The notes under the pieces were generated by a model, which was given only the letters and a program-made list of their open reading frames with translations, had not been told where the DNA came from and made no database searches. Below, piece by piece: positions 1 to 16,302 of a stretch of DNA of 32,000 bases (position 1 is the stretch's first letter; the number at the start of each line of letters is the position of its first letter). Position numbers and translations under genes: made by a program. The DNA is taken from NCBI GenBank assembly GCA_016700135.1, contig CP065004.1:870001-902000 (forward strand), given 5' to 3'. Source of the stretch: Candidatus Saccharimonadota bacterium. GTDB lineage: Bacteria > Patescibacteriota > Microgenomatia > UBA1406 > GWC2-37-13.

Positions 1-318
1 CATGCTGTTATGAAGGGAAAGATTGACTTGAACAGTACTGTATATTCAGATTCGTGGAGCGGATACAACGGACTTGTTGATGTCGGGTATGACAAACATT
101 TGAGAATCAATCACAAGAAAAATGAGTTCTCAAATACAAAAGGGGTCCATATCAATGGCATAGAGTCATTCTGGTCCTTTTGTAAAAGACGTCTCGTTAA
201 GTTCAATGGTGTAAAGAAAAACTTTCCATTACACTTGAAAGAGTGTGAATGGAGATGGAGCAAATCCCCATCGATCCTTTACAATGAACTATTACAAATT
301 GTTAATGTGCTAGTCTAG
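1..318 (+). CDS. IS1595/ISXO2-like DDE transposase, C-terminal 105 aa (partial at window edge)
   Basis: The frame is open from base 1 (HAVMKGKIDL...). The sequence is identical to the C-terminal part of the 224-aa transposases of copies 2 and 3. The stop codon TAG lies inside the inverted repeat. Confidence 0.9.
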   Translation, partial: HAVMKGKIDLNSTVYSDSWSGYNGLVDVGYDKHLRINHKKNEFSNTKGVHINGIESFWSFCKRRLVKFNGVKKNFPLHLKECEWRWSKSPSILYNELLQIVNVLV

Positions 319-322
319 AGCC
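1..322 (+). mobile_element. IS1595-family insertion sequence, copy 1 (5' part lies outside the window)
   Basis: Bases 1-322 are the reverse complement of the corresponding part of the 715-bp elements at 15166-15880 and 29011-29725. It ends with the terminal inverted repeat TGCTAGTCTAGAGCC at 308-322. Confidence 0.9.
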
Positions 323-692
323 TTAGTAAATGATTGAGAGTAGGTTTTAATATGCAATAGTTTCCCTTGATCCATTAAGTCTACAATTCGTCCTAAATCT
401 CCGGCATTGCGGGATAGTCTATCAGGTGCCCAAGTGAGGATGGCGTTAAATTTTCCTTCTGCCAGTTCTTTCAGAAGCCTGTTAAACTCTGGACGTTGTC
501 CTGATTCTTTAGCGGAATGGCTTTCAGTAATAACCTCAACGACATTTAACTTCTCCCGCTTTGCCATTAATCTCATTTCCTGAAGCTGCCCGTCAATACC
601 ATTGCCTGCCGCTCATCAGATTCACTCGATTTTCTCGCATACAAACAGTATCCGATTGCTTCTGTTTTGCCCTTGGTTGTGATCCTTTCCAT
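323..692 (-). pseudogene. serine recombinase (resolvase/invertase-type catalytic domain), frameshifted and truncated by IS copy 1
   Basis: Minus-strand ATG at 692-690 gives MERITTKGKTEAIGYCLYARKSSESDERQA, which carries the catalytic-serine motif YARKSS. The frame then shifts by one base near 601-605 into the track ORF (..GIDGQLQEMRLMAKRE..SAKESGQRPEF..WAPDRLSRN..). That frame runs directly into the IS end at 322, and the tail ALD-stop is IS-encoded. Confidence 0.8.
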
Positions 693-786
693 ACAACACA
701 ATGAATGACGCAACCGTACTATGAAGTCAAGGCGCAAGATACTATACGATTAAAAAGAGAAATTTACTAACATTTATATGAGGAAG

Positions 787-2040
787 TTAGGCCGAAGGTG
801 TCTGTGATTGAGCTTTCCAAGATTTTACTACCTGAGGTTGAGCATCTGGAGACTCTTTATAACTCAATTCTTCTATTAACCCATGTGCTGCATGAGCTAC
901 TTTTCCTGCCACTGCAAGTTCTTGTGGATTGGTTACCCCTGTAAAAGTAAGTTCTCGTGCGTTATTTACTGCCTCAGTTGCTAGCGTAAGCGCTGCTTTC
1001 TCTGGATCACCATCAGCAGCTTCTAATGCTGCATGTACATCTTGTGTAACAGATGTTCTTTGATCTCTGGGCAATAAGTCAGGGTTTCGCTGAGTAGTTT
1101 TCGGAACTAAATCATGGGTACGAAAATCAAGATGCTGGAATACTTCCACATCTCCAAGCTTTAAGGAACTTGAGTATGAATGAAAACTATCAAACATACG
1201 AAGTGCAACATGTGGGGGAATTTTAGAAAGATCCACATTTTTAAGATCAATTTTATTTCTTCCAACCTCAACTCCTAATGTCTCCTGAAGAGCACGTCCT
1301 GATCTTACAGCTTCCATATCTGTTATTTCTTTTCCTGCTAAATCAACCTCTACATCTTCTGGCGTTTTTGATTCAATTTTGCCCATCATTTCGCCTGTTC
1401 CATCATAAACTACAACTTCTTTTGCAAGCGTATAAGAAATAACTCGATCCATACCAAGACGTGTTGCTGCAAATGCTGCACCTTGAGATAACCACATAGG
1501 AATCCCAGTCATCCGAACTGTATTAACTCCACGTGCTTTAAGTTCTTTCAACTGTGCTGCAACTTCTCGCATATATTCTTGTGCTTTAGTAGGATCAGCC
1601 ATTTGTTGCATCGCTTCAGGATTATCAGCAAAGGTTAATCGAAGATCTACAACGTCTGTTGGAGCATTGGGATCAAGTTTGGAGGGTGGAACTTCAGCAA
1701 GTAATGGTTTGGTCGGATGATCTGGAATATCAGCAGCAAATTCATCAGACCATAATACAACTCTACCTTCACGTCCTGGATTATTGAATGCAAATTCTTT
1801 GACCTTAGAACCAGGTTTACCTGCCTCCGCTGCAACACCCATATAAATATCCATGAGTGTTCCACCTGTTAAATCAAGACTTTTACTATCAAAAACTTTT
1901 TTTGTTCTGGCAACTTTTACATATTCTGCAAGTTGGTATATATCTGCTTTTCCACCTTCGTAGAGGTCTTTACTAACATCAAATACTCGTGGTTCTGATT
2001 GAGGTACTTGGGGTTCTTGTCCAACTGGTATTTCTGTCAT
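787..2040 (-). CDS. hypothetical protein, 417 aa (operon gene D)
   Basis: Long uninterrupted ORF with an ATG start in the ATATGACAGAA context shared with the three upstream genes. I recognise no motif. Confidence 0.85.
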   Translation of the reverse strand: MTEIPVGQEPQVPQSEPRVFDVSKDLYEGGKADIYQLAEYVKVARTKKVFDSKSLDLTGGTLMDIYMGVAAEAGKPGSKVKEFAFNNPGREGRVVLWSDEFAADIPDHPTKPLLAEVPPSKLDPNAPTDVVDLRLTFADNPEAMQQMADPTKAQEYMREVAAQLKELKARGVNTVRMTGIPMWLSQGAAFAATRLGMDRVISYTLAKEVVVYDGTGEMMGKIESKTPEDVEVDLAGKEITDMEAVRSGRALQETLGVEVGRNKIDLKNVDLSKIPPHVALRMFDSFHSYSSSLKLGDVEVFQHLDFRTHDLVPKTTQRNPDLLPRDQRTSVTQDVHAALEAADGDPEKAALTLATEAVNNARELTFTGVTNPQELAVAGKVAHAAHGLIEELSYKESPDAQPQVVKSWKAQSQTPSA

Positions 2041-2107
2041 ATTTTTATTTAATTTAATCTAATCTTGGTTGTTAAGATCAATAGTTTAGATTAGTAATAT
2101 ATTGCTA

Positions 2108-2136
2108 ATATTATCAACCGCATTAGTAAAAGTCAA
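2108..2136 (-). promoter_or_regulatory. candidate sigma70-type promoter for gene D (TTGACT-N17-TAATAT)
   Basis: On the minus strand, TTGACT lies at 2136-2131, followed by a 17-nt spacer and TAATAT at 2113-2108. It sits in the 104-bp gap just after the helicase stop codon. Confidence 0.35.
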
Positions 2137-2144
2137 GCAAGATT

Positions 2145-5100
2145 TTAAGATGTCATTTGTTCAATCGCTTGCTCTGCTAAATCAGGAAGCTCGGTATCTT
2201 TTGGTGGCCTTTCTCTTCCTTGTAAAAGCGATACAAATGTGGTTTGGAACCTTTGTACGTCTTCAGGATTATTACCAATATATTCTTTTACCAGATCGCT
2301 TTTTGAAGCCTTTATAGCAGCATGCATATTTTCTACTCCTCGTAACGCATTTCGCAGTTCTTGTGTTGTCGCATCATCATATCCTCTCTCTGCTTCTTGG
2401 GTTGCGAGTCTTATTTGCTGAAAAATAATAGGAAACTCTGCTTCAGAAATTTTCGCTTCTGCCATAGCTTGGGGCCCGCGACCGATAAGCGCTGCTTGTA
2501 TCAATGCTCGTTTTCGAGGTTTGTTATTTCGTTGCATAAGTGTTCTTACCTCTTCTACAAGACTTTCTGTATCTCGTGCTTGAATACCACCTAAGAGAGT
2601 AGTATGAACAGGCTGTGGTTCAGTTTTTCTTTCGCCATTTGTTGTTGCAGGTATAGTACTTTCAAACGTTTCTGTTCTTTCTGGTTCAGTTTGAGTAGAT
2701 ACCTCTTCCTCTGCAGGCTCTCTTGGTGCAGTTATATCTTCTGGCCGAATGCCAGCCCGTGCAAACGCAGCAGCAAAAGGACTGCTCATAAGTTCTTCTT
2801 GTTCAGCTTCTGCTTGTCTTGCCCTTTCAGCCTCTTCTTCAGCAAGTCGTCGTGCTTCTTCTGCTTCAGCTCTCAACTTATCCTGTTCTCTCTTTTGCTC
2901 TGCCGCTTCTTGAATTCTCTGTTGAATCTGCTGCAAAGTCTCTTTTGCACTTCTGGGATTCGACTCAAGCCCATATGAAGCTTCTTGTAATTGATCTCGC
3001 AATCGATAAAAATCAGTATAAGAAAGACCATATTGTTCATAAGCTGCATTACCTATTTGATCTACCATGCGATCTAATTGTGAGCGTACTTCTGTTTGGA
3101 GTTTCCTGACTTGTGGCAACAGCTCAATTCGTTCTTGCTCAAGTCGCTGTTTTTCTAATGCTTGAGTTCGTATTTCCTCAACTCTTGCTTGCGCTTGCTG
3201 TGCTTCAGCTTCAGTTGCGTAATATCGGACTGAGTAAGAGTCACCAGAGTAAGAAGATCGTTCAACAGTAAGTGCCGGATACGCATACATTGGCTCACCA
3301 GTTTCAGGATCAGTACCATATGCTAAACGCTCTGGCAAAGTTGGCGCTTCACCTGTGGGATCAAAACTAGTTAATCTCTGTTGTAATACATCTGATGGTT
3401 GCGCGTAACGCCAGCTGTCCCATTGTTGCTTTACCAGGTGCTCTCTTGTTCTCTTTTTCAATTCTTCTAAATCTTTTCCTTCGAATTGTTTTGCAGTGCT
3501 TCCTTCTTTATCAACTATTTCAATAGTAATTGCTCTACCTGAAGGCAGAGCTGGCACCTCAGTAAATGAAAACACTTGATTAGCTGGAACTCGTATCCGA
3601 GCAGAAAATCGATCAGAACCCCAACCGCTATCAGCATAAGTAATACCAAATGTTGCATCACCGATTTGAAGGGTATCTGGATTATCCCGAATAATTTGTT
3701 CCTGAACTTCTACTGATACATATTCATCGAGTTTTACAGATAAATCAAGCGTCCCTGCTGCCAATGCTTCTTCTAATTCTTTTCGTGACGCAATTGACTG
3801 AAGTCTTCCTTTATAAATTTCTGCTAGTTGTTGGGTTGATAAAGGTTGTGCAGTTTCACCAGCTGAACGAAGATATAAATCTCTTAATTTTGTTATGACT
3901 TCATTGTTCTCTGATACAAATGGTAAATCAAGTCTGCCCGCAGCTAAAGCATTTGCAAATACTTCTACCGCTTCATTACCTGTCAGCTTTCTTTGTTCTG
4001 AAGCGTACGAGCTATAACTGCCTTTGAGATACAAATCAACGCTTCGTACCACTCGATCAGTTTCAGGATCGTAACTAGTGCTTCGCGCCTCTTCTCGGAC
4101 AAGCTGTGGTGCTACAGTTTTAAGCACTGATGGATCAACTTTTGTTGCTAAAGTAATAAGCGGCAGTTCGCCACCTCTTCTTGTTTGTACTGTGATTAAT
4201 TCATTGGCAATCACGATGTCACCAACAACTGCTGATTCTCTTCCAAGCATGGCACGTTCTCCTGTTTCAGTATTTTGATACCATCCACGCCCAGCAGCAG
4301 TAAAGATTTTATCTGGAAACCCTGCAATAATTGCTTGGCAAATCGTTTCTGGTTTTGCCTTATCCGTATTGAGAGAATATCCTAAACGTTTAACTTGTTC
4401 AGTTAATTGTGCAACGTTTTGTCGCACTTCTTTTAATGCTTGGATAGAGACATAATTTTCTCGACACCACTGATACGAAAACCCTGCACGTTCTGCTTGT
4501 TGATAGACATTCAGTAAATTGATAAGGTCAGAAGCTTGGGACGTGTTAAATGCTCGATGTGCTGCATCTGCTTGCTCTCCTTCAGCTTGTGGGCGATAAA
4601 ATAACCGTTTGCTTGTTCGAAGCGCTGCAATAACTGCCATTTCTCGGCCACATCCCATTTCAGCACCTTTCAGAAGCATTGTGCCTTCTCGTGGATCACA
4701 GCTTAGCTCTGCCAATTTTTCTCCAAACTTAGAAAGTCGTGTTTCATCTTCTGGGTCAAGCGCTCCAAGTAGCCGCAGTTGATTTTTTGCAGTTTTCCAA
4801 TTTTGTTTCTCAGGTGAATCAATAAATCGAAGTGGATCTCCCTCACGAGAATATCCCATGGCCTTAATTTGCATTACCACTTCTCGTAATGAAGTTCGCA
4901 TAATTTCAGGTTTTGTGGAGGTAGGTCGTCTATTAAATTCATCTTCAGTTAAAAGGAAATAACACTCACCAGGTTGTGTTCTGCCAGCTCGTCCTTGTCG
5001 TTGTCGTAAGGAATCCTGTGCAACAGGCCCAACTACTAATTTTGAGGTATCAGACGCAGGATCATATTCTTTAATACGGGCAAGCCCTGAATCGACTACG

Positions 5101-6020
5101 TATTTAATACCATCAATAGTAAGTCCTCGTTCAGCAATATTGGTTGAAATAATAATTTTTCTTCCTCTTGTTTTTTCAAAGACTCTATGACGCTCAGCAG
5201 GTGGTAATTCACTGTGAAGGGGAAGTATTGTGACTCCTGTGACATGTTGTCTTGCTAACGCATCCACAGTCGCTTGGATTTCTTGTTTTCCAGGCATAAA
5301 AATTAATACGTCACCATCTTCTCCAGCTTGGTGAATTTGTGCTACAACTTCTGCTGCTTTGTCTGGCATTCTACTTGGGTCTATTCGCTCAGGTGCATAA
5401 TGGACATCAACGGGATACGGTCTTCCTTTTGCTTCCACAATTGGTGCGCCACCAAAATGCTCTGAAAACTTCTGTGCATTCAGTGTTGCTGACATTAAAA
5501 CAAACTTTGCCTTACTTCCTTGCTGCTGTGCTTTTTCAACGAGCGCTAAACCAATATCTGAAAGTAAGTAACGCTCATCAAATTCATCAAAAATAACAAC
5601 CGATGCTTGATCAAGCGTAGGGTCATTGCGAACAATATTTTTGAAAACGCCACTGGTCATAAAGACAATATTGCTATTTCTCCCTGAGCGTTTTTCAGGG
5701 CCTGTTAAGTAGCCTACTTCACGACCAACCTCAACACCCATCTCATCTGCAACTCGATTTGCGACTTCAACAGCAACAGGCACTCTATTCTCAACAACAA
5801 AAATTTTCCCTTGTTGCGCGAATCCTTCTGCCCATAACGCTTGGGGAACTTGTGTTGTTTTTCCACTGCCAGTTTCAGAAACGAGGATTAAACGATTATC
5901 ATGTTGGAGCGTGTCAACGATTTCTGGCATTTTCTGCCAGATAGGAAGTTCGTGATTGCCTACTTCACTTCTTGGAGCATGTTCTCTAGAATGTCCTTGA
6001 CCGGTTTGATGCTCTGTCAT
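2145..6020 (-). CDS. DEAH/RHA-family (HrpA-like) helicase, 1291 aa, with long C-terminal extension
   Basis: Helicase motifs: I SETGSGKTTQ, II DEFDER (variant of DEAHER), III MSAT, IV LIFMPG, V TNIAERGLTIDGIKYVVDSG, VI QRQGRAGR. An HA2-like segment follows (LGALD..LAELSCDPREGTMLL..) and then an OB-like segment. The last ~650 aa are unassigned and include a charged coiled-coil stretch (EAEEARRLAEEEAERARQAEAEQEE). Confidence 0.9.
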   Translation of the reverse strand: MTEHQTGQGHSREHAPRSEVGNHELPIWQKMPEIVDTLQHDNRLILVSETGSGKTTQVPQALWAEGFAQQGKIFVVENRVPVAVEVANRVADEMGVEVGREVGYLTGPEKRSGRNSNIVFMTSGVFKNIVRNDPTLDQASVVIFDEFDERYLLSDIGLALVEKAQQQGSKAKFVLMSATLNAQKFSEHFGGAPIVEAKGRPYPVDVHYAPERIDPSRMPDKAAEVVAQIHQAGEDGDVLIFMPGKQEIQATVDALARQHVTGVTILPLHSELPPAERHRVFEKTRGRKIIISTNIAERGLTIDGIKYVVDSGLARIKEYDPASDTSKLVVGPVAQDSLRQRQGRAGRTQPGECYFLLTEDEFNRRPTSTKPEIMRTSLREVVMQIKAMGYSREGDPLRFIDSPEKQNWKTAKNQLRLLGALDPEDETRLSKFGEKLAELSCDPREGTMLLKGAEMGCGREMAVIAALRTSKRLFYRPQAEGEQADAAHRAFNTSQASDLINLLNVYQQAERAGFSYQWCRENYVSIQALKEVRQNVAQLTEQVKRLGYSLNTDKAKPETICQAIIAGFPDKIFTAAGRGWYQNTETGERAMLGRESAVVGDIVIANELITVQTRRGGELPLITLATKVDPSVLKTVAPQLVREEARSTSYDPETDRVVRSVDLYLKGSYSSYASEQRKLTGNEAVEVFANALAAGRLDLPFVSENNEVITKLRDLYLRSAGETAQPLSTQQLAEIYKGRLQSIASRKELEEALAAGTLDLSVKLDEYVSVEVQEQIIRDNPDTLQIGDATFGITYADSGWGSDRFSARIRVPANQVFSFTEVPALPSGRAITIEIVDKEGSTAKQFEGKDLEELKKRTREHLVKQQWDSWRYAQPSDVLQQRLTSFDPTGEAPTLPERLAYGTDPETGEPMYAYPALTVERSSYSGDSYSVRYYATEAEAQQAQARVEEIRTQALEKQRLEQERIELLPQVRKLQTEVRSQLDRMVDQIGNAAYEQYGLSYTDFYRLRDQLQEASYGLESNPRSAKETLQQIQQRIQEAAEQKREQDKLRAEAEEARRLAEEEAERARQAEAEQEELMSSPFAAAFARAGIRPEDITAPREPAEEEVSTQTEPERTETFESTIPATTNGERKTEPQPVHTTLLGGIQARDTESLVEEVRTLMQRNNKPRKRALIQAALIGRGPQAMAEAKISEAEFPIIFQQIRLATQEAERGYDDATTQELRNALRGVENMHAAIKASKSDLVKEYIGNNPEDVQRFQTTFVSLLQGRERPPKDTELPDLAEQAIEQMTS

Positions 6021-6041
6021 ATATATTCATTGTAATGGTGA

Positions 6042-7541
6042 TTAGTCTTCTCGCTCTTGCGTTAGCGTGTGTCGTTGTCCCATTTTCTCCATATTACTTA
6101 AGAACAACTCATAATCAGAATCCTTAAACCATTGTCTAAATTTTCCCTCAATTCTCTGAGCTAACTCATGTAACTCTTCCTGCGTTGCATCTTGTCTTTG
6201 AAACAACTCTTGAATTTTTTGTGCTTCTTCTGCTGTTTCTCCTACTTCCCACAGCTCACTATTTTCAACACCAGCAGGAAACTTACCAGTTTTTAACATA
6301 TACACTGCTCGAGGCAATAAATCACATGCCACTCTGTATAGTGGAATTACTTTTTTAATTTGTTTCGTGCCCTCTTTATCAACACGTTTTACATAACTTT
6401 TACCCCATGCATCTCTATGCAAAAATTCTTCTGCTGCACCAAGATAGTGGTGAGCAACCATATCAGGAGACAGCTCTTGCTGAAGTCTTGCTTGTAATTT
6501 TTGCCCTGACTCTGTTTGCGGTATGGTATGTGTAGCCACAATCATACTGATGGGCTGATATGATTCCTTTCCACCTTTCACCACATCCCAAGCAGCTAAC
6601 TTTTCAGGCACTGCAATAACATCCATTCTTCTTTCACGAGATAATTGCGGACCAAACTTAGTATCCAATTGATAAAACCGAGGCTCAGTTAGTAAAGAAG
6701 TTACAGAAACAACATCCTGATCATGCTCATCCTCAGCCATTAACAAGTCATAACTTGCAAGTTCCGCATACAGCCGTGCGTCAGCTATGTTTTTATCAGG
6801 CATGAGAATCACCATTTCATCTTTTGAATCTTCTGCTAATCTTTTTTGTACTTCATCATACGCTGCTCTCGCTTGCTCAGCGCCTACTTCAGTTGTGTAA
6901 CGAGCTAATACCTCCTCTACCTGTTGTTCAAGTGCAGGCGCTGTTTCAAGCCCTCTACCTTTTCTCAATTGATTTGCATGTTGGATTAACGGATACAACG
7001 GATGCGCTTCCAGATATTTTTGCTGGTCTTCAATGGCCTCATCAGGAGCATCAACATAGAGTAAAATATCCTGCACTGTTCGAGTGATTTTTTTATATTT
7101 CTTTCGTGGATCAGTTGTTTCTGAATCTTCCCTATAATCCTGCCAAAACTCATTTGCTTTATGGATAAGTGCTTTTCTCATAAGCTGTCTCTCGTCTGGA
7201 GAAACTCTGTCTAAAAGCGCTTTTCTATATTCAAATTCTTCCGGAGTACGGTGTTGTGAATGATTGGCAACAACAAACCAAAGTGGCAACCATGACTCCT
7301 GATGCGTTGGGTACCCTGCCCATTGTGGTAGATGCTCTGGATCTTTTGGTAAAACCAATGCCACATCCTTTCCTAAAACCAATTTTGTAGGCCGTGTTGT
7401 ATCAGTTAATAAAATAACATTATGATTATTTGCAGTAGCACTTTCAAACTGCTCGCTTCCATAGGCCATATGTTGCTTCCATGGCTCTGCTTCTCTTTGT
7501 TCTGGTGGTCTTATGTGTGGTTGTATTATTTCTTCTGCCAT
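6042..7541 (-). CDS. hypothetical protein, 499 aa (operon gene B)
   Basis: Long ORF. I prefer the ATG at 7541-7539 (MAEEIIQ..., context ATATGGCAGAA) over the track's TTG at 7547. This start lies 2 nt after the TGA stop of the upstream gene. No motif recognised. Confidence 0.8.
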   Translation of the reverse strand: MAEEIIQPHIRPPEQREAEPWKQHMAYGSEQFESATANNHNVILLTDTTRPTKLVLGKDVALVLPKDPEHLPQWAGYPTHQESWLPLWFVVANHSQHRTPEEFEYRKALLDRVSPDERQLMRKALIHKANEFWQDYREDSETTDPRKKYKKITRTVQDILLYVDAPDEAIEDQQKYLEAHPLYPLIQHANQLRKGRGLETAPALEQQVEEVLARYTTEVGAEQARAAYDEVQKRLAEDSKDEMVILMPDKNIADARLYAELASYDLLMAEDEHDQDVVSVTSLLTEPRFYQLDTKFGPQLSRERRMDVIAVPEKLAAWDVVKGGKESYQPISMIVATHTIPQTESGQKLQARLQQELSPDMVAHHYLGAAEEFLHRDAWGKSYVKRVDKEGTKQIKKVIPLYRVACDLLPRAVYMLKTGKFPAGVENSELWEVGETAEEAQKIQELFQRQDATQEELHELAQRIEGKFRQWFKDSDYELFLSNMEKMGQRHTLTQERED

Positions 7542-7543
7542 AT

Positions 7544-9520
7544 TCAATTATTATCGCTTTGTTGTCTCCTCTTCTCAACTGCATTTGCGACAAACATTGC
7601 TGTTGCAAAAACAGACGGATTATAGGTTCGCTCAGCCTTACTTCGATCAAGATTTGTGATAATCCCTGCTTCGTCACGGCTACCCGCAACACGCTGAACA
7701 TTTCCTTCTAAAACGCTTTGATACATACCGATAATTTCTATTGGCCTATCTCGTTGAATTCTGACCCCTGTTTCTGGATCAATCCCAATCTCAATCAGTT
7801 TTCGCCATTCTTCAGCGCCTTCTGGGTTATTAGATACAATAATTACCGCATCTGCTCCTTCTAAAATCCTCGCATTTTCAGCAGTTAAGCGAGTGATTTT
7901 AACGATTTTACCATTTTCATCTTTTTTTATTTTTCCTCCACCAATGTCTCCAATAACAAAATCTGTATCTTCTTGCTGTGTTGCTTGCACAAGTTCTTGT
8001 TTTGCTTCCTCAGCAAGCTCGAGCGACCACGACCGTTTCATTGACTGCCTTCGTCCTGCCGCTTCCTCAAGTGCTCTTTTTGCCTCATCAAGTTTTTCCT
8101 GAGATAATTTTCCTTGAGCAAAAAGAGATTCTGCTTCTTTATACGCAACCTCAGCATCAAGGTACCAAGCCGGGGTAGGTGCAGCTTTATCTAAATCTAA
8201 ATGCGCAACGCGTACTCCTAAGTTTTTGAGTGCCTCCCGGAAAATAGTTGAATAGACAGATTTACCAGAGTTTGGATCACCACACATGACAACCGATTTT
8301 ACTTTTGAAAAATCTGGCATCTCACGTCCTGCAAATGCCTCAACGAGTTGAGCAACGATTCGTGCTGTTTCCTTATCGTTTACTGGTAAACGAACTGTTT
8401 TTGCATTTACTGCACCATACATTCTGTAGGTATCTATAAGCTCGGGCATTTGCTCAGAAATAATTTTCTCAACCGAGGGCAAATCTTCTCGTGTCCAATA
8501 GCGAATAACTGTTATTAAATCAGCAGGTTCTCTCCCCATTTTGACTGCATCTCCTGCCTCACGAAGTACACCAATTGCATACGGTGTTTTATCTGCACCA
8601 TTATTATCAATTGCCATTTCCATAAGTTTTAATACCGAAAACTTTTCTGTGAGGCCCTGCGTATCAACAAGTGCAATTTGGCCAAAACCACTAGCTGTTG
8701 GAATTTCAACACGAGCCATTTTTTCTGCCTCACCTCTAAAATATTCCCAATCCTCAGCTTTTAGTCGCTGCACTGCATCCTCAAGTCGCTTCTGTGCTCG
8801 ATTTTCCCACGCCTTCAATGCTTCCTGATATACTTGTGATTCCTGTTCAGTTGCGTTTTTCGGTAATGTAGGACGTGGATCATCTGAATCAGGACGGACC
8901 GCTGCATCGAGCCCTTTTGCAAGCACCATTTCCTCTTCAGTTATTGGAAGAGTAGCTGTATCTCTGTCGCAAATTGCGCCAATTCTAGCAATTTTTGATG
9001 GTTCATTTCCAAGTCTGCATTCATATGCTTGTGGTACAGATTTCACAACAACAGATGAAGCATCTGTTTGAAATGCTGTAGTGCTATGATGATCCAAGAA
9101 AAACACCGGATGCTCAAGTTCTGGCAAGTTTCTCCGTTTTCTTTCTTCGTTAATACGCTCTGCCAATTTAACAACTTCTTCTTCCGATTGGCTCAGATTT
9201 CTGAAATCAAGGGGAATATCGGTAACAATAACTCGATCAACTCCTTCTAGAGGCAATCCCGGCAGTGTTTTTGAGTAAAATGCACCAGGATGCGTAGCAC
9301 CCCTTCCATTTCTCACAACTGGTGAGCCAACATACGTTTCAACTTCAGCGCCTCTTTTTTCAAGATACTGAGCAGATGTTGCAACCATGCTGACTCCATG
9401 TGCATCGGGACCACCAACAACTAATACTTTTTGCCCTTCAAATGATTCTCTTTCTTCAGGAAGTGCAATAGCACCAGTCCGTTCAATTGGGGTAGGCTGA
9501 GGTGCAATTTGTTCCGTCAT
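7544..9520 (-). CDS. fusion protein: DHH-like phosphoesterase module + P-loop NTPase (Clp1/GPN-loop-like), 658 aa (operon gene A)
   Basis: The N-terminal part carries GGPDAHGVS, VIVTDIP and FFLDHHSTT, which resemble DHH-family motifs I-III. The C-terminal part carries Walker A MCGDPNSGKS followed by AHLDLD, and later DFVIGDIGGG (Walker B-like). A charged helical insert separates the Walker motifs. Confidence 0.7.
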   Translation of the reverse strand: MTEQIAPQPTPIERTGAIALPEERESFEGQKVLVVGGPDAHGVSMVATSAQYLEKRGAEVETYVGSPVVRNGRGATHPGAFYSKTLPGLPLEGVDRVIVTDIPLDFRNLSQSEEEVVKLAERINEERKRRNLPELEHPVFFLDHHSTTAFQTDASSVVVKSVPQAYECRLGNEPSKIARIGAICDRDTATLPITEEEMVLAKGLDAAVRPDSDDPRPTLPKNATEQESQVYQEALKAWENRAQKRLEDAVQRLKAEDWEYFRGEAEKMARVEIPTASGFGQIALVDTQGLTEKFSVLKLMEMAIDNNGADKTPYAIGVLREAGDAVKMGREPADLITVIRYWTREDLPSVEKIISEQMPELIDTYRMYGAVNAKTVRLPVNDKETARIVAQLVEAFAGREMPDFSKVKSVVMCGDPNSGKSVYSTIFREALKNLGVRVAHLDLDKAAPTPAWYLDAEVAYKEAESLFAQGKLSQEKLDEAKRALEEAAGRRQSMKRSWSLELAEEAKQELVQATQQEDTDFVIGDIGGGKIKKDENGKIVKITRLTAENARILEGADAVIIVSNNPEGAEEWRKLIEIGIDPETGVRIQRDRPIEIIGMYQSVLEGNVQRVAGSRDEAGIITNLDRSKAERTYNPSVFATAMFVANAVEKRRQQSDNN

Positions 9521-9539
9521 ATTTTTATCTTATAAAGAA

Positions 9540-9548
9540 AGTATAGCA
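9540..9548 (-). promoter_or_regulatory. candidate extended -10 promoter (TGcTATACT) for the four-gene operon
   Basis: The minus strand reads TGCTATACT, and 19 nt separate its end from the ATG at 9520. No Shine-Dalgarno sequence lies in between. Confidence 0.35.
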
Positions 9549-9627
9549 AATTTTACCCGACTGTTATTACCTCTTCTTCTTATAATTTTACACAGAGAGA
9601 CTACAACAAATCAACCATAGGTCGAGC

Positions 9628-9644
9628 ATATAAAGTCTTTATAT
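9628..9644. promoter_or_regulatory. 17-bp perfect palindrome ATATAAAGTCTTTATAT, candidate operator
   Basis: It lies in the 164-bp divergent region between operon gene A and the XRE gene. The half-site TATAAAG recurs at 9531-9537, between the candidate -10 and the ATG of gene A. Confidence 0.4.
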
Positions 9645-9684
9645 AGACAATTTTATCTCTGAATTTTGCGGAAAATTGCTCTAT

Positions 9685-9909
9685 ATGCCTTATTATTTTA
9701 CTGCAAAGCTTCGTAAAGAAATAGGTGACAATTTAAAAAGGACTAGGAAAAAGAAGGGACTCAAACAAGTTGAAGTAGCAGTTGATGCAGGAATAAATCC
9801 CAGCTATTACAGCAAAATTGAACGAGGGGAAGTAAATCCATCCTTGGAGAAATTATATCGAATCATAAAAGCGCTTAAAATAAACTCTTCTGAGGTTTTG
9901 CCTTTTTAA
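9685..9909 (+). CDS. XRE-family helix-turn-helix transcriptional regulator, 74 aa
   Basis: LKQVEVAVDAGINPSYYSKIERGEVNPSLEKLYRIIKAL is a typical HTH_3/Cro-C1 motif. The ATG at 9685 is preferred to the track's TTG at 9676. Confidence 0.85.
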   Translation: MPYYFTAKLRKEIGDNLKRTRKKKGLKQVEVAVDAGINPSYYSKIERGEVNPSLEKLYRIIKALKINSSEVLPF

Positions 9910-9927
9910 ATTCTCCTTAGTACTTAA

Positions 9928-11448
9928 TTAAAAAACCTTATCTAATGTGATTCTATCTTCATCGTCAAATATACTTAGTGGGTTGTATCGATCATAAATA
10001 CTAGGTCCCCCAATAATCATTATCCCTGGCTGAGGAGCATTATCCTCTTCCATGATTTTCAGTAAAAGCAGTGAGAAAGCATCAGCTAAATCATCGTGCT
10101 TTTCTATTCTAAATCCTGTGAGTTGCATGATCAAATCTTCTGCGCCCTGTCTAGGGAATAGTACTTTGCCTTGTTGAATGAGATGAGTAATAAGCGTTAG
10201 GCGTGATTGTTTATCCTGTCCTGATACCTTCACCCCTTCAGCTGGAATATTCATGACGTTTGATAGATGTTCTATAAGTGCCAACTGATACCCAACCTCT
10301 TCAATATACAGCTTAGATTGTAAACTGGTAGCAATCCCTGCAGCTGTTTCTACCGTTTGAGGAAATCCCATCCTTTTATTGATGGGATTCGGAAGAATAT
10401 AAACCTGCAGCTTTTCTCGGTAGCCATACACCTTTGCAGTGATCATCGCTGTGAAATCAGCTGATTCCCTCTGAGAAATTGCCAAATCAATTCCTGTTGC
10501 GTTAAAGCGAAATTTATTGCCCATTTCATCCGGAATAGTATCGTAATATTGGATCCAGTCAGGATGAACTAATCGATCTTCATCAGAAATAATTTTAAGT
10601 AAGAATTCTCGATACCAGGCAGTATCTGAGGCAATGGTTGCTTTATGTTTCTCAATAGCTTGCATGTCAGGAAATTTACCTGTCCAAGAAATAACATCGT
10701 TATCATCAATAAGAGGATAGGCGAAGAATTTACCATCAAGTTTCCCCAAACCCATCATATTCTTAAGTCGCATCAACAAACAGTCTTCATGCAGGAGATT
10801 ACCAATAATGATTTTCTTTGTATAGGTATCACCAATTGGCATAATCTCTCCACTGAACCACTGAAATACTTTATCTCTACCTTCTTTCGTTTTTACACTC
10901 TGTAAGTCTTCAACATCATCACAAATAATGACATCTGGTCGATATTTTCCATGCCGAATTCCTCGGATACTTTGCTCAGTCGAAGCAATCATAATTTTTG
11001 CATCATAATTAGAGAGCACGATCGAGGTCGAACCCCACTCATCGCTAAATTCTTGGAATGGTCCGATATCTGCCTTGAGTAGGTGGTTTGTTTCCAACTC
11101 TTTTTTAATGTTCGCTAGATGCTGTCGTGCCTGGTTATGTGTCTGTCCTAATATCAAAACGAACTTTTTCTGTTGAGAACCAATAATCGACCAGATGGGA
11201 TAGGACAAGCTCATGAGTGTTGACTTACCTGACCCTCGAAAGGCAACGATTGTTGCCAGACGCAAATCTTGATCTTCACTAATATGAAACATTTCATGAT
11301 GAAACGGAGCAAAGGGGTAATCGATGTACTCACTCAAATAAATAGTGAAGAACCAGAAATGGCTTTTCTTGGCAAGCATCTTCCGAATGGAGCGTTTCTT
11401 TTTAATCTGCTCAAGTTCTTGAGGTGATAAGGTTTGTGCTACATTCAA
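9928..11448 (-). CDS. phage terminase large subunit (TerL)
   Basis: Walker A is AFRGSGKST and Walker B is DVIICDDVED. The C-terminal RNaseH-like nuclease region carries acidic motifs (GIDLA, YIEEVGYQ, KHDDLADAF). The TTG start overlaps the upstream stop by 4 nt. Confidence 0.85.
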   Translation of the reverse strand: MNVAQTLSPQELEQIKKKRSIRKMLAKKSHFWFFTIYLSEYIDYPFAPFHHEMFHISEDQDLRLATIVAFRGSGKSTLMSLSYPIWSIIGSQQKKFVLILGQTHNQARQHLANIKKELETNHLLKADIGPFQEFSDEWGSTSIVLSNYDAKIMIASTEQSIRGIRHGKYRPDVIICDDVEDLQSVKTKEGRDKVFQWFSGEIMPIGDTYTKKIIIGNLLHEDCLLMRLKNMMGLGKLDGKFFAYPLIDDNDVISWTGKFPDMQAIEKHKATIASDTAWYREFLLKIISDEDRLVHPDWIQYYDTIPDEMGNKFRFNATGIDLAISQRESADFTAMITAKVYGYREKLQVYILPNPINKRMGFPQTVETAAGIATSLQSKLYIEEVGYQLALIEHLSNVMNIPAEGVKVSGQDKQSRLTLITHLIQQGKVLFPRQGAEDLIMQLTGFRIEKHDDLADAFSLLLLKIMEEDNAPQPGIMIIGGPSIYDRYNPLSIFDDEDRITLDKVF

Positions 11449-11903
11449 TGTATTTGCACCTCCGTTTCTGTTCCTTTGGGAGAATCCCTCTCTAGAGCAG
11501 TTGGAAGTAATTCAGCTAATTTAAGTGCTTTCATGACCAACGCTTCTTGCTCAGGAGTCAATTGTTCCTCATGTTTCAGGTGTCCTGTTATTTCAACCTT
11601 TGTTGCGTAGCGAGGATGGTGATGCTTGAGCCAGAAAATAATCGCCGTAAGGTTTTTATCTCGAATTGCAGCCATGAGCTGGGATTCTGCCATGTCATTC
11701 ACTAAATTATTTCCTTCTGCAATTGCCTCATCTGCAAGTTTGGCAAACTCCTCATTTTCTTTTCGCCAACGATAGTATGTTGCTCGACCAATTCCAACTT
11801 TTTCACAGGCAACTTGCACAATTGGTGTTTTCTTGAGTTGCTCAATGACTAGCTCTTGGTTTTTATCTATCCGTTTCTGAATTGTTGACTGATTATTTTC
11901 CAT
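11445..11903 (-). CDS. small-terminase-like HTH protein
   Basis: The HTH ACEKVGIGRATYYRWRKENEEF lies in a 152-aa protein encoded immediately upstream of TerL and overlapping it. This position and size are typical of TerS. Confidence 0.6.
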   Translation of the reverse strand: MENNQSTIQKRIDKNQELVIEQLKKTPIVQVACEKVGIGRATYYRWRKENEEFAKLADEAIAEGNNLVNDMAESQLMAAIRDKNLTAIIFWLKHHHPRYATKVEITGHLKHEEQLTPEQEALVMKALKLAELLPTALERDSPKGTETEVQIH

Positions 11904-12654
11904 CGCCTTTTATCCTTTCTGCCTTTTGATCACTGACTTTTTGAAAGCGATCAATAATTACTTGGCAGTATTCCGGATCGATCTCAACCATGAGGCATCT
12001 TCGTTTTGTTTGCTCACACGCAATTAATGTCGATCCAGAACCACCAAACGGATCATAGATGCAATCACCAATTTTTGAGCTGTTTAGAATTAGATTCCTC
12101 AGAAGTCCTACTGGTTTCGTGGTTGGATGAAGGGGACTTTTGTTAGGTTTTGGATAACACAAAATACTTTTGTCTTTCACTTTGTAAAACTCATGACTCC
12201 CATACCAACCATATGCAATCAACTCGTGTTGGGGAAGGTAATGCATTCGACCAACTACTGAATGGTTTTTAATCCAAATAAGAAGCTGGGTAAACTTAAT
12301 CTCCGCGTCTTTCATACCATCTCTTAAGGCAAACAGCATCTTGTCAGAATTGAAAATGTAAAACGAATTCTTACGAGAGAGATACGGTTTCACTACTTCA
12401 ATCCATTCTTTCGTAAATAGTCTGTATGCTTCTTCCGTCTGCGTATGATCATTGATTATCTTCTTGCTGTGCTTTTTTATCTTCGTCAAGTCAGTTTTTC
12501 CTTCAACATAGGCAACACCATATGGCGGATCTGTCAGCACCAATGATATTCGCTCATCTCGGATAAGTTTCTTCATTAAACTTGAAGCTTTTGCGTCACC
12601 GCATAGTAACCGGTGATCACCTAATTGATAGACGTCACCAATTGTTATTTGCAC
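11893..12654 (-). CDS. DNA methyltransferase (N6-adenine/N4-cytosine, beta class)
   Basis: Motif IV is TDPPYG and motif I is DPFGGSGST, in the order IV then I. The GTG start overlaps the upstream gene by 10 nt. Confidence 0.85.
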   Translation of the reverse strand: MQITIGDVYQLGDHRLLCGDAKASSLMKKLIRDERISLVLTDPPYGVAYVEGKTDLTKIKKHSKKIINDHTQTEEAYRLFTKEWIEVVKPYLSRKNSFYIFNSDKMLFALRDGMKDAEIKFTQLLIWIKNHSVVGRMHYLPQHELIAYGWYGSHEFYKVKDKSILCYPKPNKSPLHPTTKPVGLLRNLILNSSKIGDCIYDPFGGSGSTLIACEQTKRRCLMVEIDPEYCQVIIDRFQKVSDQKAERIKGDGK

Positions 12655-13946
12655 AGCTTTGCCTCCTTTCCGGTCAACTTTTCGTAGCGTTTAATAATTA
12701 GGTCGCAAAAAATGGGTTCAATTTCTAGTAGAAACGCACGACGTTTTAACTGTTCACAGGCAATAAGGGTAGAGCCGGAACCTCCGAACAGATCAAGCAC
12801 AATATCACCAGGTTTGGTACAACGTCGCAATGCTTTTTCATGGAGTGTTGGTGGTTTTTCTGTTGGGTGTTCGTAGTCTTGCGACGGCAATCGTTTTGCG
12901 AGCCAAATATTAAAAAGGTCTAGAGTGTCATCGGTAAGTCTATTCCCAGTACCCACTTCTTTATTAAGAACTTCATTTAAATTTCTAACTGAATCGGACA
13001 GATACGGATTACCTTTGATACCGTATACGCAAGGTTCATATACTTTATTAAATGCCGTTTGTGGAGTAACATTCTGATTATTTTTAATCCATAAACATAC
13101 TCGTTTTTTGGTAATGCCTAGTTCCTTATATATCTCCTGAACTAATCCAATGTAGTTTTCATCACACCAGTAAAAGATATGCGAATCAGAATGTACTACA
13201 GCAAGACCATTTTCAAGCGTTTTCTTCAAAAACGCTTTATATTCGTCCTCAGATTTTCGATCATTTATTTTGCCGCCATATTTCCCATTTGCTCCGATGC
13301 CGTTGTTATAATCAAGTGCAATGTTATACGGCGGATCGCAATAGAGCATCGATACTTTATCCTCTTTAAGTAGTTTTTTAACAATTTCTGGATCGGTAGC
13401 ATCTCCACAGCTGAGCCGATGCATGCCAAGTTCATAGATGTCTCCTAACTTACTTTTCGGTTCCTTAATCGTTTCCAGCTCTTTTTCAACATCAAACTCA
13501 TCATCCTCCACGCCTAAATTGTCATCCCAGATGTGGGAAAGGTCACTGTCATCAAAGCCAACATCTAACAATAACTCAACATCAAAGTCTTTCAGCAACT
13601 CAAAATCCCATTCTCCTGTATTGCGATTTAGACGAAGATTTAATTCTTTCTCTTTTTGGACGTTTGGGATACTCACATATACAACGGGTACCTGTGTTAT
13701 ACCTAAGCTTTTTGCGACTTCAAGACGAAAATGGCCTCCAATAACAATATTCTTTCGATTTGCTGTGCTGTTGACGATAATAGGATCAACTAATCCGAAG
13801 CGTTTAATACTCTCAGCGAGTTTTTTCGCTGCTGTCTCATCCCATTTGCGAGGGTTATATTCGGCAGGACGCAGTATATCTGCCGATACATACCGTATGG
13901 TTACTTGTCGGTTAGCAATTTTTATTTGCTGTGTTTGCTGTTGCAT
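12645..13946 (-). CDS. ParB-like nuclease domain fused to DNA methyltransferase
   Basis: The N-terminus is ParB/Srx-like (YNPRKWDE..FGLVDPIIVN..IGGHFRLEVAKSLG). It is followed by CDPPYN and FGGSGST methylase motifs, paralogous to the downstream methylase. An AAGGA Shine-Dalgarno sequence lies 7 nt upstream of the ATG. Confidence 0.85.
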   Translation of the reverse strand: MQQQTQQIKIANRQVTIRYVSADILRPAEYNPRKWDETAAKKLAESIKRFGLVDPIIVNSTANRKNIVIGGHFRLEVAKSLGITQVPVVYVSIPNVQKEKELNLRLNRNTGEWDFELLKDFDVELLLDVGFDDSDLSHIWDDNLGVEDDEFDVEKELETIKEPKSKLGDIYELGMHRLSCGDATDPEIVKKLLKEDKVSMLYCDPPYNIALDYNNGIGANGKYGGKINDRKSEDEYKAFLKKTLENGLAVVHSDSHIFYWCDENYIGLVQEIYKELGITKKRVCLWIKNNQNVTPQTAFNKVYEPCVYGIKGNPYLSDSVRNLNEVLNKEVGTGNRLTDDTLDLFNIWLAKRLPSQDYEHPTEKPPTLHEKALRRCTKPGDIVLDLFGGSGSTLIACEQLKRRAFLLEIEPIFCDLIIKRYEKLTGKEAKLCK

Positions 13947-14076
13947 AGGTTTTATCCTTCTATTTTCATTTTATGAATAAACAGTTAAAAACTTATACAT
14001 TTTTGAAAATGAGTAGTTTAAAAGTATTGTAGAAGAGTGAAAAAAGAAGCGATACGTTATGAATTATGCTTGATTC

Positions 14077-14832
14077 TTAACCAAAACGTTTTTTATATCG
14101 TTTAAGCGCATTAGACACATCAGTATAGATAAAGTCTGATTGATTAAACTCTTCCCGGATCTTTTCAGCAATTTTCTCGTACGGTCTTGTTCCGCTTTTC
14201 CATAATTCGAATACTCGCTTATCAAGTTTTAAATTCGGGATCGGCTGAGACTTGTCCTTATCTTTATCTTGCAATTGTTCTTGCTGCTTCATAACTTGTG
14301 GCCATATTGCTTTTACATCTTCTAAAGTAGTATTAGCATAAATAATGAGAGAAAGTTCGCGATGTCCGGTTTTTTTATCCCACTTGATATTCATCGAGAT
14401 ATTACTCGCAGGTACCCAGAAGTTCTCAATGTCGTTAAAAATAACATAATTCTTGAGAGAACTTCGCCATTGGGTAGAGAGTTTATATTTATGTATAAGT
14501 TGCCAGATGCAGTAATTGATGAAATTTCTTGGAGCTTTTTGATTAAACATTAACCGTTCTTGTTCATACTCAGCCATTTGTCCTTTTTCTTTTAGCTCTT
14601 GGAGCCTCTGTATCATAGAAGGGCTATTTTCACTAAAGTATTTCTGTGTCTCAAGCTCAAGATTTATCTCCCACATTGTGTATGCATTCTCATCAGTAAA
14701 TCCTCCTTCAGGAATTTTAAGTAACTTTCGCAATTCTGTAATATCTGCTTGAAAATCTTTGCGTAAGAGGAGTACTTCTAACTTCTGTTTATTACGCTCT
14801 CGACGTTTATCAAAATACGCACTTTTTGCCAT
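14077..14832 (-). CDS. hypothetical protein, 251 aa
   Basis: Uninterrupted ORF with an ATG start. No motif recognised. Confidence 0.7.
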   Translation of the reverse strand: MAKSAYFDKRRERNKQKLEVLLLRKDFQADITELRKLLKIPEGGFTDENAYTMWEINLELETQKYFSENSPSMIQRLQELKEKGQMAEYEQERLMFNQKAPRNFINYCIWQLIHKYKLSTQWRSSLKNYVIFNDIENFWVPASNISMNIKWDKKTGHRELSLIIYANTTLEDVKAIWPQVMKQQEQLQDKDKDKSQPIPNLKLDKRVFELWKSGTRPYEKIAEKIREEFNQSDFIYTDVSNALKRYKKRFG

Positions 14833-16294: not shown

Positions 16295-16302
16295 AGAGCC
16301 AT

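Follow-up and report, generated by a model that had tools for sequence, protein, structure and literature searches.

A mobile operon of a Saccharimonadota bacterium, probably an undescribed module centred on nucleotides and RNA ends

What kind of system is formed by four large genes of a bacterium of the Candidate Phyla Radiation (CPR) that are read in one direction and lie among the traces of mobile DNA? This question is raised by positions 787-9520 of a 32,000-nucleotide stretch of Candidatus Saccharimonadota bacterium (assembly GCA_016700135.1, contig CP065004.1, positions 870,001 to 902,000), which at its full length is called the window here. An initial annotation, made from the sequence alone, had seen in these genes a four-gene operon and a candidate conflict system directed at RNA or nucleotides. 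The open reading frame (ORF) calls agree with the four large co-oriented genes that it described, all on the minus strand: gene A (7544-9520, 658 aa), gene B (6042-7541 counted from its ATG, 499 aa, with an alternative TTG start at 7547), gene C (2145-6020, 1291 aa) and gene D (787-2040, 417 aa). Two nucleotides lie between the stop codon of A (7544-46) and the ATG of B (7541), and the gaps between B and C and between C and D are of 21 nt and 104 nt, respectively. Our analysis indicates that the operon is probably a mobile module, hitherto undescribed and built around nucleotides and RNA ends, with a role in conflict. The function of a conflict system that had been proposed for it is plausible.

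Domain make-up of the four proteins

The product of gene A consists of a disordered N-terminal leader, a DHH/DHHA1 phosphoesterase and a Csx3-AAA-type P-loop NTPase, and its AlphaFold2 (AF2) model is confident, with a predicted local distance difference test (pLDDT) of 83.5 and a predicted template modelling score (pTM) of 0.76. In total, 80 homologues were found at 40-76% identity, all of them within 49-76% except P0078 (40%). Residues ~20-400 (8321-9463, minus strand) have the two-lobed DHH/DHHA1 fold, as seen by comparison of the model with the PDB by Foldseek and by alignment. The best PDB match of these ~400 N-terminal residues was the PAP phosphatase 8a8k (E 6e-10 over ~405 columns); further matches were NrnA-Rv2837c (4ls9/5cet/5jju) and RecJ/GAN, and 33 DHH-family PDB chains were matched at E<=1e-3. 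In an alignment of 24 sequences, D39, H41, D101, D143-H144-H145 and D185 are invariant. The DHH module announced by the initial annotation is thus supported by the structural matches of a confident model together with the invariant D143-H144-H145. Like NrnA, Rv2837c (CnpB), PAP phosphatase and RecJ, A is built of two lobes, which match over ~400 residues (E 6e-10 to 1e-5), and it has the DHH triad and the acidic residues of the motifs. It differs from NrnA, PAP phosphatase and RecJ by an identity of only 11-16%, by the fusion to a P-loop domain, by a motif I that reads D-x-H (D-A-H) and not DxD, by the lack of any match to the Pfam DHH/DHHA1 profiles at E<0.1 and by the lack of a recognisable GGGH motif of the DHHA1 lobe, for which the 24-sequence alignment was inspected by eye.

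The second domain of A, a P-loop NTPase at residues ~405-640 (7601-8308, minus strand), is marked by the Walker A motif CGDPNSGKS, an invariant DLDKAAPTP and DIGGG. Residues 380-610 match the PADLOC models of the Csx3, Csx3-AAA and AAA-Csx3 types (PDLC01515, 01045 and 01059) at E 3.7e-10 to 4e-5, and the motifs of A recur as GDPNSGKS, D-x-D-x-AAPTPxWYLD and D-x-GG in the genuine Csx3-Csx3-P-loop protein P0081. The structural neighbours that Foldseek found for the domain are archaeal adenylate kinases, Etk/Wzc, MinD and MipZ, and a weak match to the GTPase model PRK13768 of NCBIfam (E 0.036) was also obtained. The initial annotation was right in calling this domain a P-loop NTPase, whereas its Clp1/GPN-like placement is not supported: no protein named as Clp1 or GPN occurs among the top 50 Foldseek hits, and by its motifs and profile matches the domain fits best into the P-loop family of Csx3-AAA, not being demonstrably Clp1-like. 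A does not contain a Csx3 domain, since Pfam Cas_csx3 gave no match and the N-terminal part is occupied by DHH/DHHA1. A look-up of the exact sequence of A retrieved nothing, and comparison of A, B and D with PDB chains by sequence or profile gave only noise.

For B, the AF2 model (pLDDT 92.9) points to a nucleotidyltransferase (NTase). Two independent structure libraries both rank nucleotidyltransferases at the top: in the PDB, the ANT(4') kanamycin NTase (prob 0.96-0.99) and the Hailong protein HalB (prob 0.87-0.94), and in BFVD, a nucleotidyltransferase of phage PaBG (prob 1.00, E 0.014). The E-values are modest overall (0.014-0.09; 0.045 for HalB). The N-terminal half of B aligns with the C-terminal half in hhalign (prob 85%, E 5.8e-6), hence the halves are homologous and B is a fused pseudo-dimer. 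D271, H273, D274, D276, R305 and D307 are invariant; the triad D274, D276 and D307, located in the C-terminal half, is kept in all 48 sequences aligned, with predicted strands at 274-280 and 302-311. The hG[GS] motif is not present ahead of the DxD of B, which reads ...ELASYD... there, and neither Pfam nor PDB profiles gave a sequence-profile match to nucleotidyltransferases. Taken with its modest E-values, the model predicts that B is an internally duplicated Pol-beta-type nucleotidyltransferase of the KNTase/HalB type. The initial annotation had found no motif in the 499-aa and 417-aa partners, which stands for the orphan D and no longer for B.

With ANT(4') and HalB, B has in common the NTase plus helical-domain fold (prob 0.87-0.99, target-normalised TM score 0.37-0.44) and the acidic triad. 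It differs from both in being a 499-aa fused pseudo-dimer, in having no detectable sequence similarity to them, and in its usual fusion to a RelA/SpoT-type HD domain. Indeed, most B homologues are ~690 aa long because they bear a C-terminal HD_4/RelA-SpoT hydrolase domain; the B of the window is without the HD domain, yet intact. Membership of Hailong was rejected, B being only weakly HalB-like in fold (E 0.045) and no HalA being encoded: no HalA-like membrane effector stands beside B, and A to D gave no match to a membrane-protein or ion-channel Pfam family and none to Hailong in PADLOC, transmembrane helices not being predicted.

Gene C encodes a DEAH/RHA helicase, as had been stated from the sequence. 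It matches DEAD, Helicase_C and HA2_C of Pfam, the HrpA and HrpB models of NCBIfam and, at E ~1e-97 to 1e-105, Prp22, Prp16, DHX8 and HrpA in the PDB. The core (residues ~19-640, nt 4101-5966, minus strand), defined by helicase motifs I-VI and HA2, has the RecA1/RecA2 core, the HA2 winged-helix, the ratchet and all motifs of HrpA/HrpB, Prp22, Prp16, Prp43/DHX15 and DHX8, and the eukaryotic spliceosomal Prp22, Prp16 and DHX8 score equally with bacterial HrpA. SETGSGKT, DEFDER, SAT, TNIAERGLT and QRQGRAGR are kept across the helicase family of the related loci, in which motif II reads DEFD(ER) throughout and not DEAH. Orthology of C to HrpA or HrpB was rejected, as its scores (415.9 bits for HrpA and 368 bits for HrpB) are under both NCBIfam equivalog cut-offs (722.75 and 546). 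The DEFD motif II and the lack of the HrpA N-terminal and DUF3418 regions set it further apart from these two. From DEAH/RHA helicases at large, C differs by its place in an operon with an NTase and phosphodiesterases and by a C-terminal extension of ~650 aa (nt 2148-4100, minus strand), to which profile scans assigned no family and which was found elsewhere only in locus L005 and, in part, in L067. DEAH/RHA helicases bind a 3' single-stranded RNA tail and translocate 3'->5', and C is presumably a 3'->5' RNA translocase.

Finally, D had no match in Pfam, NCBIfam, PHROGs or the PDB. Only 4-5 clusters of it exist among 1.84 billion representatives, and a profile search of this set gave no outgroup, its two weak hits being spurious (immunoglobulin (Ig)-repeat proteins). 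D occupies the terminal slot that is held in other loci by a tandem Csx3-like protein. When it was compared with Csx3 by hhalign and a custom hidden Markov model, residues 170-220 (TG-IPMWL...) and 55-100 (...FNNPGR...) of D paired with the expected segments at noise-level scores (E 0.2-40), similar to those of shuffled decoys; the resemblance of D to Csx3 units is thus suggestive and not significant. An HD-like enzyme, suspected from an H...HD...D pattern in the C-terminal half of D, was rejected, as no relation to the RelA/SpoT HD profile was found.

Tetra-adenylate is a ligand and substrate of Csx3. In the close relatives, the Csx3-like protein has 290 aa and scores 33 bits against Pfam Cas_csx3 (cut-off 21) and E 5e-12 in PADLOC. 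By eye it looks like a tandem of two Csx3-like units (for example L001, 16698-17567), and in hhalign unit 1 and unit 2 match at noise level (E 0.69). Unit 1 retains the HxxH ('LLHGAHP') of the Csx3 H60 face, and unit 2 retains the SGRGP ligand loop without equivalents of D69 and R71. Since the latter are missing from the SGRGP unit, a ring-nuclease activity of this protein is doubtful, and it may bind oligoadenylate rather than cut it. The stand-alone Csx3 of the distant locus L067 has HxxH, FDPR and H, as judged by eye, at the positions of the catalytic residues of AfCsx3 as reported in PMC7371418.

Related loci: a conserved unit, a swappable slot and a shared leader

Do these genes belong together elsewhere? 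Scans with A found 8 loci in 185,579 species-representative genomes and 52 in metagenomes; all ORFs of the A-containing loci were clustered, and 63 related loci entered the co-occurrence table. Scans of IMG/VR with A, B and TerL found no relatives, and none was found by tblastn of A and B against GenBank phages and PLSDB plasmids or by megablast of the block against plasmids. As the adjacency of the genes recurs in the 63 related loci with strict co-occurrence, it is more than chance, and chance adjacency was ruled out on this ground. Among the 22 loci whose sequence extends 5.5 kb or more beyond A on the downstream side, 19 have the helicase; in the remaining 3 it is substituted by a protein with a polyprenyl-synthetase-like domain, and no locus has neither. 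A terminal gene was found in all 17 loci with at least 7.5 kb, being the Csx3-like protein in 15 and D in 2, never both. Across the 63 loci, B occurs in 22 (about one third) and D in about one fifth, so the linkage of the genes holds and a fixed A-B-C-D set, as the initial annotation had it, does not. What is conserved is A, the helicase and one of two terminal proteins (Csx3-like or D), around a middle slot whose content can be swapped.

The slot between A and the helicase may hold B, a GNAT protein with a 231-aa NTase, a Fic-like protein with HD_4, a Fic-radical-SAM fusion, or nothing. By Pfam and NCBIfam its families are GNAT, HD_4/RelA-SpoT hydrolase, Radical_SAM, Fic and an archaeal-CCA-like NTase; the latter, the 231-aa alternative, has weak similarity to archaeal CCA, OAS and CD-NTase enzymes and no relation to B that hhalign could detect. 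Natural fusions join A to B (P0069), to the NTase, to Fic and to GNAT. In six loci (L036, L037, L048, L049, L058 and L060), a fusion of Fic-like and radical-SAM domains and a ~527-aa polyprenyl-synthetase-like protein stand instead of B and the helicase, and L036 and L037 additionally encode a NUDIX protein. All six retain A, and those of sufficient length end in the Csx3-like protein or D. This variant hints at the synthesis of a modified nucleotide. The Fic-like protein of the relatives matches the PADLOC candidate PDC-S04 at 1e-5. In L005, a canonical Fic protein (Fic_N plus Fic, 18532-19656) immediately follows D, at the place where the window has a recombinase fragment.

Distant homologues of B, at 35-55% identity, occur in several layouts. 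L067 has Csx3, P-loop, B and DEAH helicase in this order, its stand-alone P-loop protein matching the PADLOC Csx3-AAA models at E 8e-42; in L072 this gene set recurs, its helicase preceding B; and L069 and L073 have a P-loop-Csx3 fusion, B and helicase. In L065 and L071, B adjoins MoxR-VWA, with a separate HD_4 gene in L065 and none in L071. We also observed that a Csx3-Csx3-P-loop gene adjoins a MoxR-like ATPase in L063 and L064, and that a TrmB-type regulator lies a few kb upstream in L069, L071, L072 and L073, with small unannotated genes in between. The association of distant B and Csx3-AAA homologues with MoxR/VWA pairs and TrmB suggests a wider network of related modules. As Csx3 stands in the distant relatives at the place of the DHH/DHHA1 part of A, one Mn-dependent (oligo)adenylate phosphodiesterase appears to have been displaced by another.

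Among described proteins, the module is linked to Csx3-AAA and AAA-Csx3, which accompany type III CRISPR-Cas as ancillary proteins (Shah et al. 2018, PMC6546367, clusters 35 and 67; for example Synechocystis Slr7080). The likeness lies in the homologous P-loop domain of A, with its PADLOC match at E 3.7e-10 and the motifs common with P0081, and in the true Csx3 plus P-loop proteins encoded by the distant relatives of the operon. The differences are that A has a DHH/DHHA1 phosphoesterase in place of Csx3, that the P-loop of the operon has an obligatory link to a DEAH helicase and a nucleotidyltransferase, and that no CRISPR context is seen: a custom scan found no CRISPR array in 74 loci (841 kb) and none was found in the window, and no cas genes were found among the scanned window ORFs or in the gene tables of the 74 loci, which also list no Cas10, CD-NTase or SAVED/CARF effector. 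Membership of the Csx3-AAA system was therefore rejected for the module, A having no Csx3 domain and no CRISPR context. The operon thus sets the Csx3-AAA P-loop in a CRISPR-free context together with an NTase and a DEAH RNA helicase, with DHH/DHHA1 replacing Csx3, and gives this P-loop a defined partner set with testable substrates, namely oligo(A), cyclic tetra-adenylate (cA4), pApA and RNA 3' tails.

The initial annotation had placed this gene combination outside the named systems, and our searches agree. In PADLOC-DB v2 (Mokosh, Hachiman, Gabija, Druantia, Zorya, CBASS and others), the only models matched were of the Csx3 type (by A and the Csx3-like protein), apart from weak generic Cas3/helicase hits, so there was no system-level match, and profile searches in PADLOC, Pfam and NCBIfam placed the four genes in no described system. 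The searchable literature on Csx3 with DEAH, DHH or HrpA, on Csx3-AAA and on CPR defence gave no description of the operon. A Pnkp-Hen1 or RtcB/Archease repair cassette was rejected, since no ligase or methyltransferase domain was found in A to D or in the variable-slot proteins. TRAMP (Trf4-Air2-Mtr4) and the bacterial PAP I/RhlB/PNPase are RNA tailing-and-decay machines and offer a functional analogy only. The operon resembles them in combining a Pol-beta NTase, an RNA helicase and a phosphodiesterase or exonuclease; it differs in that its helicase is of the DEAH type (not Ski2 or DEAD), in having no exosome, PNPase or RNase R, and in being mobile and modular.

The flanks of the related loci differ, with glycosyltransferases, ClpP/trigger factor, NDK/DivIC/FtsEX and others. 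A is ~70% identical among bins labelled Roizmanbacteria, Berkelbacteria, Falkowbacteria, Omnitrophica, 'Gammaproteobacteria' and Pacearchaeota; such identity across bins of different phyla points to lateral transfer and, in some cases, to mis-binning. Judged from these sequence comparisons, the module is accessory and horizontally mobile. Because its genes recur together beyond this contig and the flanks vary, the proposal of the initial annotation withstands the objections that it had itself raised, namely that the genes might keep together on no other contig or might be a housekeeping cluster in a fixed chromosomal context.

Most proteins of the close loci, though of unrelated families, share a short, acidic, proline-containing N-terminal leader, M-[SN]-[ED]-[KQ]-x0-4-F-[TP]-P-[EQ]...EPK. 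It is found in A proteins (MSEKHPEQFTPP...), in B, NTase and Fic proteins (MSDQEKFTPQFE...), in helicases (MMSEKGGEFPPQEQ...) and in the Csx3-like protein and D (MSEKNFTPEAQVPQE..EPK). A regular expression for the leader, composed after inspection of the data, matched 0 of 325 flanking proteins and 66 of 151 system proteins, these 66 representing at least 8 unrelated families. The leader regions of the window lie at the N-termini of A (9470-9520), B (~7490-7541), C (~5960-6020) and D (~1990-2040), and are more degenerate (MTEQIAPQPTP, MTEHQTGQ and MTEIPVGQEPQVPQSEP); the leader is clearer in L001, L008, L013, L018 and L059, and the distant Csx3-type loci are without it. In the models it is disordered (residues 1-17 of A and 1-15 of B, pLDDT < 50). 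Synonymous codon identity reaches 0.66-0.80 in the leader versus 0.55-0.63 in the gene bodies, the amino-acid identity of the leader being lower, and a nucleotide motif GAAAAA-TTTACRCCR is visible in it. The raised conservation of synonymous sites indicates that the leader may be constrained in part at the level of the mRNA or of translation initiation.

In L001, we observed that a gene for a 424-aa protein (15134-16408) and the Csx3-like gene (16698-17570) have near-identical 5' untranslated regions (UTRs) and first 24 codons. The same arrangement is seen in L003 and L047 and resembles a cassette inserted by recombination within the leader. The near-identity of the 5' UTRs and 24 codons in L001 suggests that the leader is also a recombination joint for cassette swapping. 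The leader may serve as a tag for targeting or assembly, act in translation, or be a joint for recombination. A leader common to unrelated proteins of one operon is unusual and could reveal a mechanism of targeting, assembly or translational control.

Proposed function and its alternatives

What could such a set of enzymes do? Building on the domain identities, modular co-occurrence, Csx3-AAA link and mobile distribution established above, we infer a mechanism, and tentatively favour one in which the operon acts on RNA 3' ends or short (oligo)adenylates in a genetic conflict, in defence of either the cell or the element. Expression of the operon would be set by the XRE repressor encoded next to A. 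As expected from its family, C would bind a 3' single-stranded RNA tail and move 3'->5', working as an RNA-engaging motor or sensor. B would add nucleotides to a 3'-OH through its DxD...D site, making either a tail for C or a short oligonucleotide. A would erase the product of B, its DHH/DHHA1 part hydrolysing short oligoribonucleotides or pNp in the manner of NrnA or PAP phosphatase, and its Csx3-AAA-type P-loop might supply an NTP-driven switch or a kinase step. D could be an oligo(A)-binding or trimming partner, as it sits where the relatives have the Csx3-like protein and Csx3 cuts tetra-adenylate; this is the weakest step. The swappable slot would then provide interchangeable 'writer/eraser' enzymes on a constant core made of A, the Csx3-like protein or D and, usually, the helicase.

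Several observations weigh against this proposal. The NTase assignment of B comes from modest Foldseek E-values and motifs, without sequence-profile support, and the role of D is guessed solely from its position. Neither a processive exoribonuclease nor a nuclease toxin or membrane effector is encoded in the operon of the window. The helicase can be replaced, and its polyprenyl-synthetase-like substitute in 3 loci and the NUDIX protein in 2 fit small-molecule nucleotide chemistry better than RNA tailing. Loci of the Falkowbacteria type place the module among the housekeeping genes NDK, DivIC and FtsEX. Finally, the lack of a match to any PADLOC system model is neutral on novelty and gives no backing for a defence role.

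The main rival, which we consider somewhat doubtful, is that the Csx3-AAA module gave rise to an oligonucleotide second-messenger pathway independent of CRISPR. The helicase would sense foreign RNA, and B, the alternative NTase or Fic would make a free cyclic or linear oligoadenylate-like signal, to be read by the Csx3-like protein or D and the P-loop of A and erased by DHH/DHHA1, Csx3 and the RelA/SpoT-type HD domain. The placement of the P-loop of A in the Csx3-AAA family, a companion of type III CRISPR systems, speaks for such a pathway, as do the distant loci whose stand-alone Csx3 has residues at the catalytic positions of AfCsx3. B is as close to the Hailong signal synthase HalB as to any enzyme, the alternative NTase gives weak CD-NTase/OAS/CCA hits, and the core of A with the Csx3-like protein or D persists where the helicase is replaced. 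However, we recognised no signal-activated effector, one 'writer' would be faced by 3 or 4 'erasers', the doubtful ring-nuclease activity of the Csx3-like protein, without D69/R71 equivalents, fits poorly, and none of the 74 loci has Cas10, a CD-NTase, a SAVED/CARF effector or a CRISPR array. It is quite unlikely that the operon serves housekeeping instead, namely TRAMP- or degradosome-like RNA turnover and nucleotide salvage in nucleotide-auxotrophic CPR bacteria without any conflict role. Its parts would indeed suit the tailing, unwinding, cutting and rephosphorylating of RNA (NTase, 3'->5' helicase, nanoRNase-like DHH/DHHA1 and adenylate-kinase-like P-loop), and in loci of the L009/L010 type the module is flanked by NDK on one side and cell-division genes on the other, all of one strand. 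Against this stand the patchy distribution (8 of 185,579 species representatives), the variable flanks with ties to recombinase, insertion sequence (IS) and terminase genes, the swaps of the slot to GNAT, Fic and radical-SAM enzymes, which are foreign to RNA decay, and the ~70% identity of A across bins of different phyla.

Two further explanations start from the mobile context. The enzymes could be packaged or exported by the TerS/TerL element and delivered with DNA as a counter-defence against cyclic-oligoadenylate or alarmone signals, with the leader as the signal, in analogy to the capsid-targeting sequences of T4 and the Dar proteins of P1. The restriction of the leader to system proteins (66/151 versus 0/325 flanking proteins) and its disorder in the models of A and B would suit this, and so would the position of the window operon directly after terS-terL, the carriage of the system in L041 and of its distant version in L067 by the same type of element, and the fact that Csx3, DHH and HD enzymes are of the kinds that erase immune nucleotide signals. 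We nevertheless regard delivery as very unlikely: capsid, portal and protease genes are absent nearby, the terminase is not seen in most loci, IMG/VR, GenBank phages and plasmids hold no relatives, the leader is missing from the distant Csx3-type loci, and its synonymous-site conservation points partly to a constraint at the level of RNA or translation. It would be similarly far-fetched to see in the operon a founding example of a CRISPR-independent, Csx3-AAA-derived conflict pathway of CPR bacteria, whose unrelated subunits would all be directed by the leader to one destination, either particles made with TerS/TerL or, by export, the host cell, so that helicase, nucleotidyltransferase and phosphodiesterases would arrive together as a mobile enzyme kit. 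Toxins are known from the GNAT, Fic and small NTase families, and GNAT, Fic and NTase are paired with hydrolases in the variable slot; together with the XRE regulator and the mobile context, this would allow an addiction module of the toxin-antitoxin (TA) type, in which the toxin (B, GNAT or Fic) would target translation and HD, DHH and the Csx3-like protein or D would be the antidotes. This is most improbable, as four large proteins including a 1291-aa helicase far exceed the size of TA modules, the B of the window is intact though without an HD partner, and no TA model was matched.

Should the module prove to be immune or counter-immune in function, the known repertoire would gain a nucleotide 'writer/eraser' architecture that is centred on an RNA helicase. 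The module would then also be among the few candidate systems specific to CPR/Patescibacteria, which are largely inaccessible to culture.

Control region and surrounding element

The context that had been described from the sequence, an XRE regulator, a cut serine recombinase with an IS, and a terminase/methylase module, was located in full. The XRE-family helix-turn-helix regulator (9676-9909, plus strand, 77 aa; Pfam HTH_3, E 3e-16) is divergent from A. In 15 loci, its homologue (cluster c3) is the gene immediately upstream of A; the two share a strand in 13 of these and diverge in the window and L005. The intergenic region between XRE and A (9521-9675) is AT-rich and contains promoter-like hexamers, which are consensus and repeat matches only, and a perfect 8-nt palindrome, ATATAAAG-n-CTTTATAT, at 9628-9644. 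This palindrome could be a candidate operator, with a chance origin being possible in such AT-rich surroundings. The promoter-like element noted in the gap between C and D is present as a consensus-type match (TTGACT-17-TAATAT at 2136-2108, minus strand), though the region as a whole has 26 promoter-type sites versus 22.4 +/- 4.7 in shuffles, that is, no excess.

Downstream of D lies an 88-aa fragment of a truncated serine recombinase (310-576, minus strand; Pfam Resolvase, E 1e-10), cut by an IS and 68% identical to the recombinase of L041. A full-length serine recombinase (448-551 aa) is found within 10 kb of the system in 8 loci, and also in L067. The IS is a partial copy of the IS1595 family (1-332; DDE_Tnp_IS1595, transposase fragment 10-318). 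Inverted repeats of it were found at 15162-15487 (versus 1-326, 100%) and at 29001-29332 (versus 1-332, 99%). Three essentially identical IS1595-family copies are thus seen, at 1-332, 15156-~15900 and 29001-~29735. The operon and the terminase/methylase block (332-15156) are flanked by inverted copies in a composite-transposon-like arrangement, and one of these truncated the recombinase.

On the other side of XRE, TerL (9928-11448, minus strand; PHROGs phrog_38, E 1.7e-68), TerS (11445-11903, minus strand; PHROGs E 3.7e-11) and two N6/N4 methylases, one of them fused to ParB_N (11893-13946, minus strand; Pfam and PHROGs), form a module (9928-13946) that belongs to the same mobile element and lies outside the operon. 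L041 (1-5166) shares with the window the ParB-methylase, methylase, TerS, TerL, system and recombinase at 58-80% amino-acid identity (59-80% for the four flanking genes and the recombinase), in rearranged order, and in L067 (1996-8222) a ParB-methylase, a TerL-like gene and a recombinase stand beside the Csx3-type version. No portal, capsid or tail genes were found near the TerS/TerL modules of the window, L041 and L067. The combination of TerS/TerL, ParB-methylase and recombinase may mark a degraded prophage or a satellite-like element in CPR bacteria. The window and L005 form a mosaic of identities, with 87% for XRE, 74% for A, 84% for C and 91% for D.

Outside the element, the window is ordinary chromosome. 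An Rfam scan detected only two tRNAs, both outside the block, and no att repeats were found within the window. One of the two, a tRNA-Leu (anticodon tag) at 17207-17291, lies ~1.3 kb past the IS copy that bounds the element on this side, and is a possible integration site.

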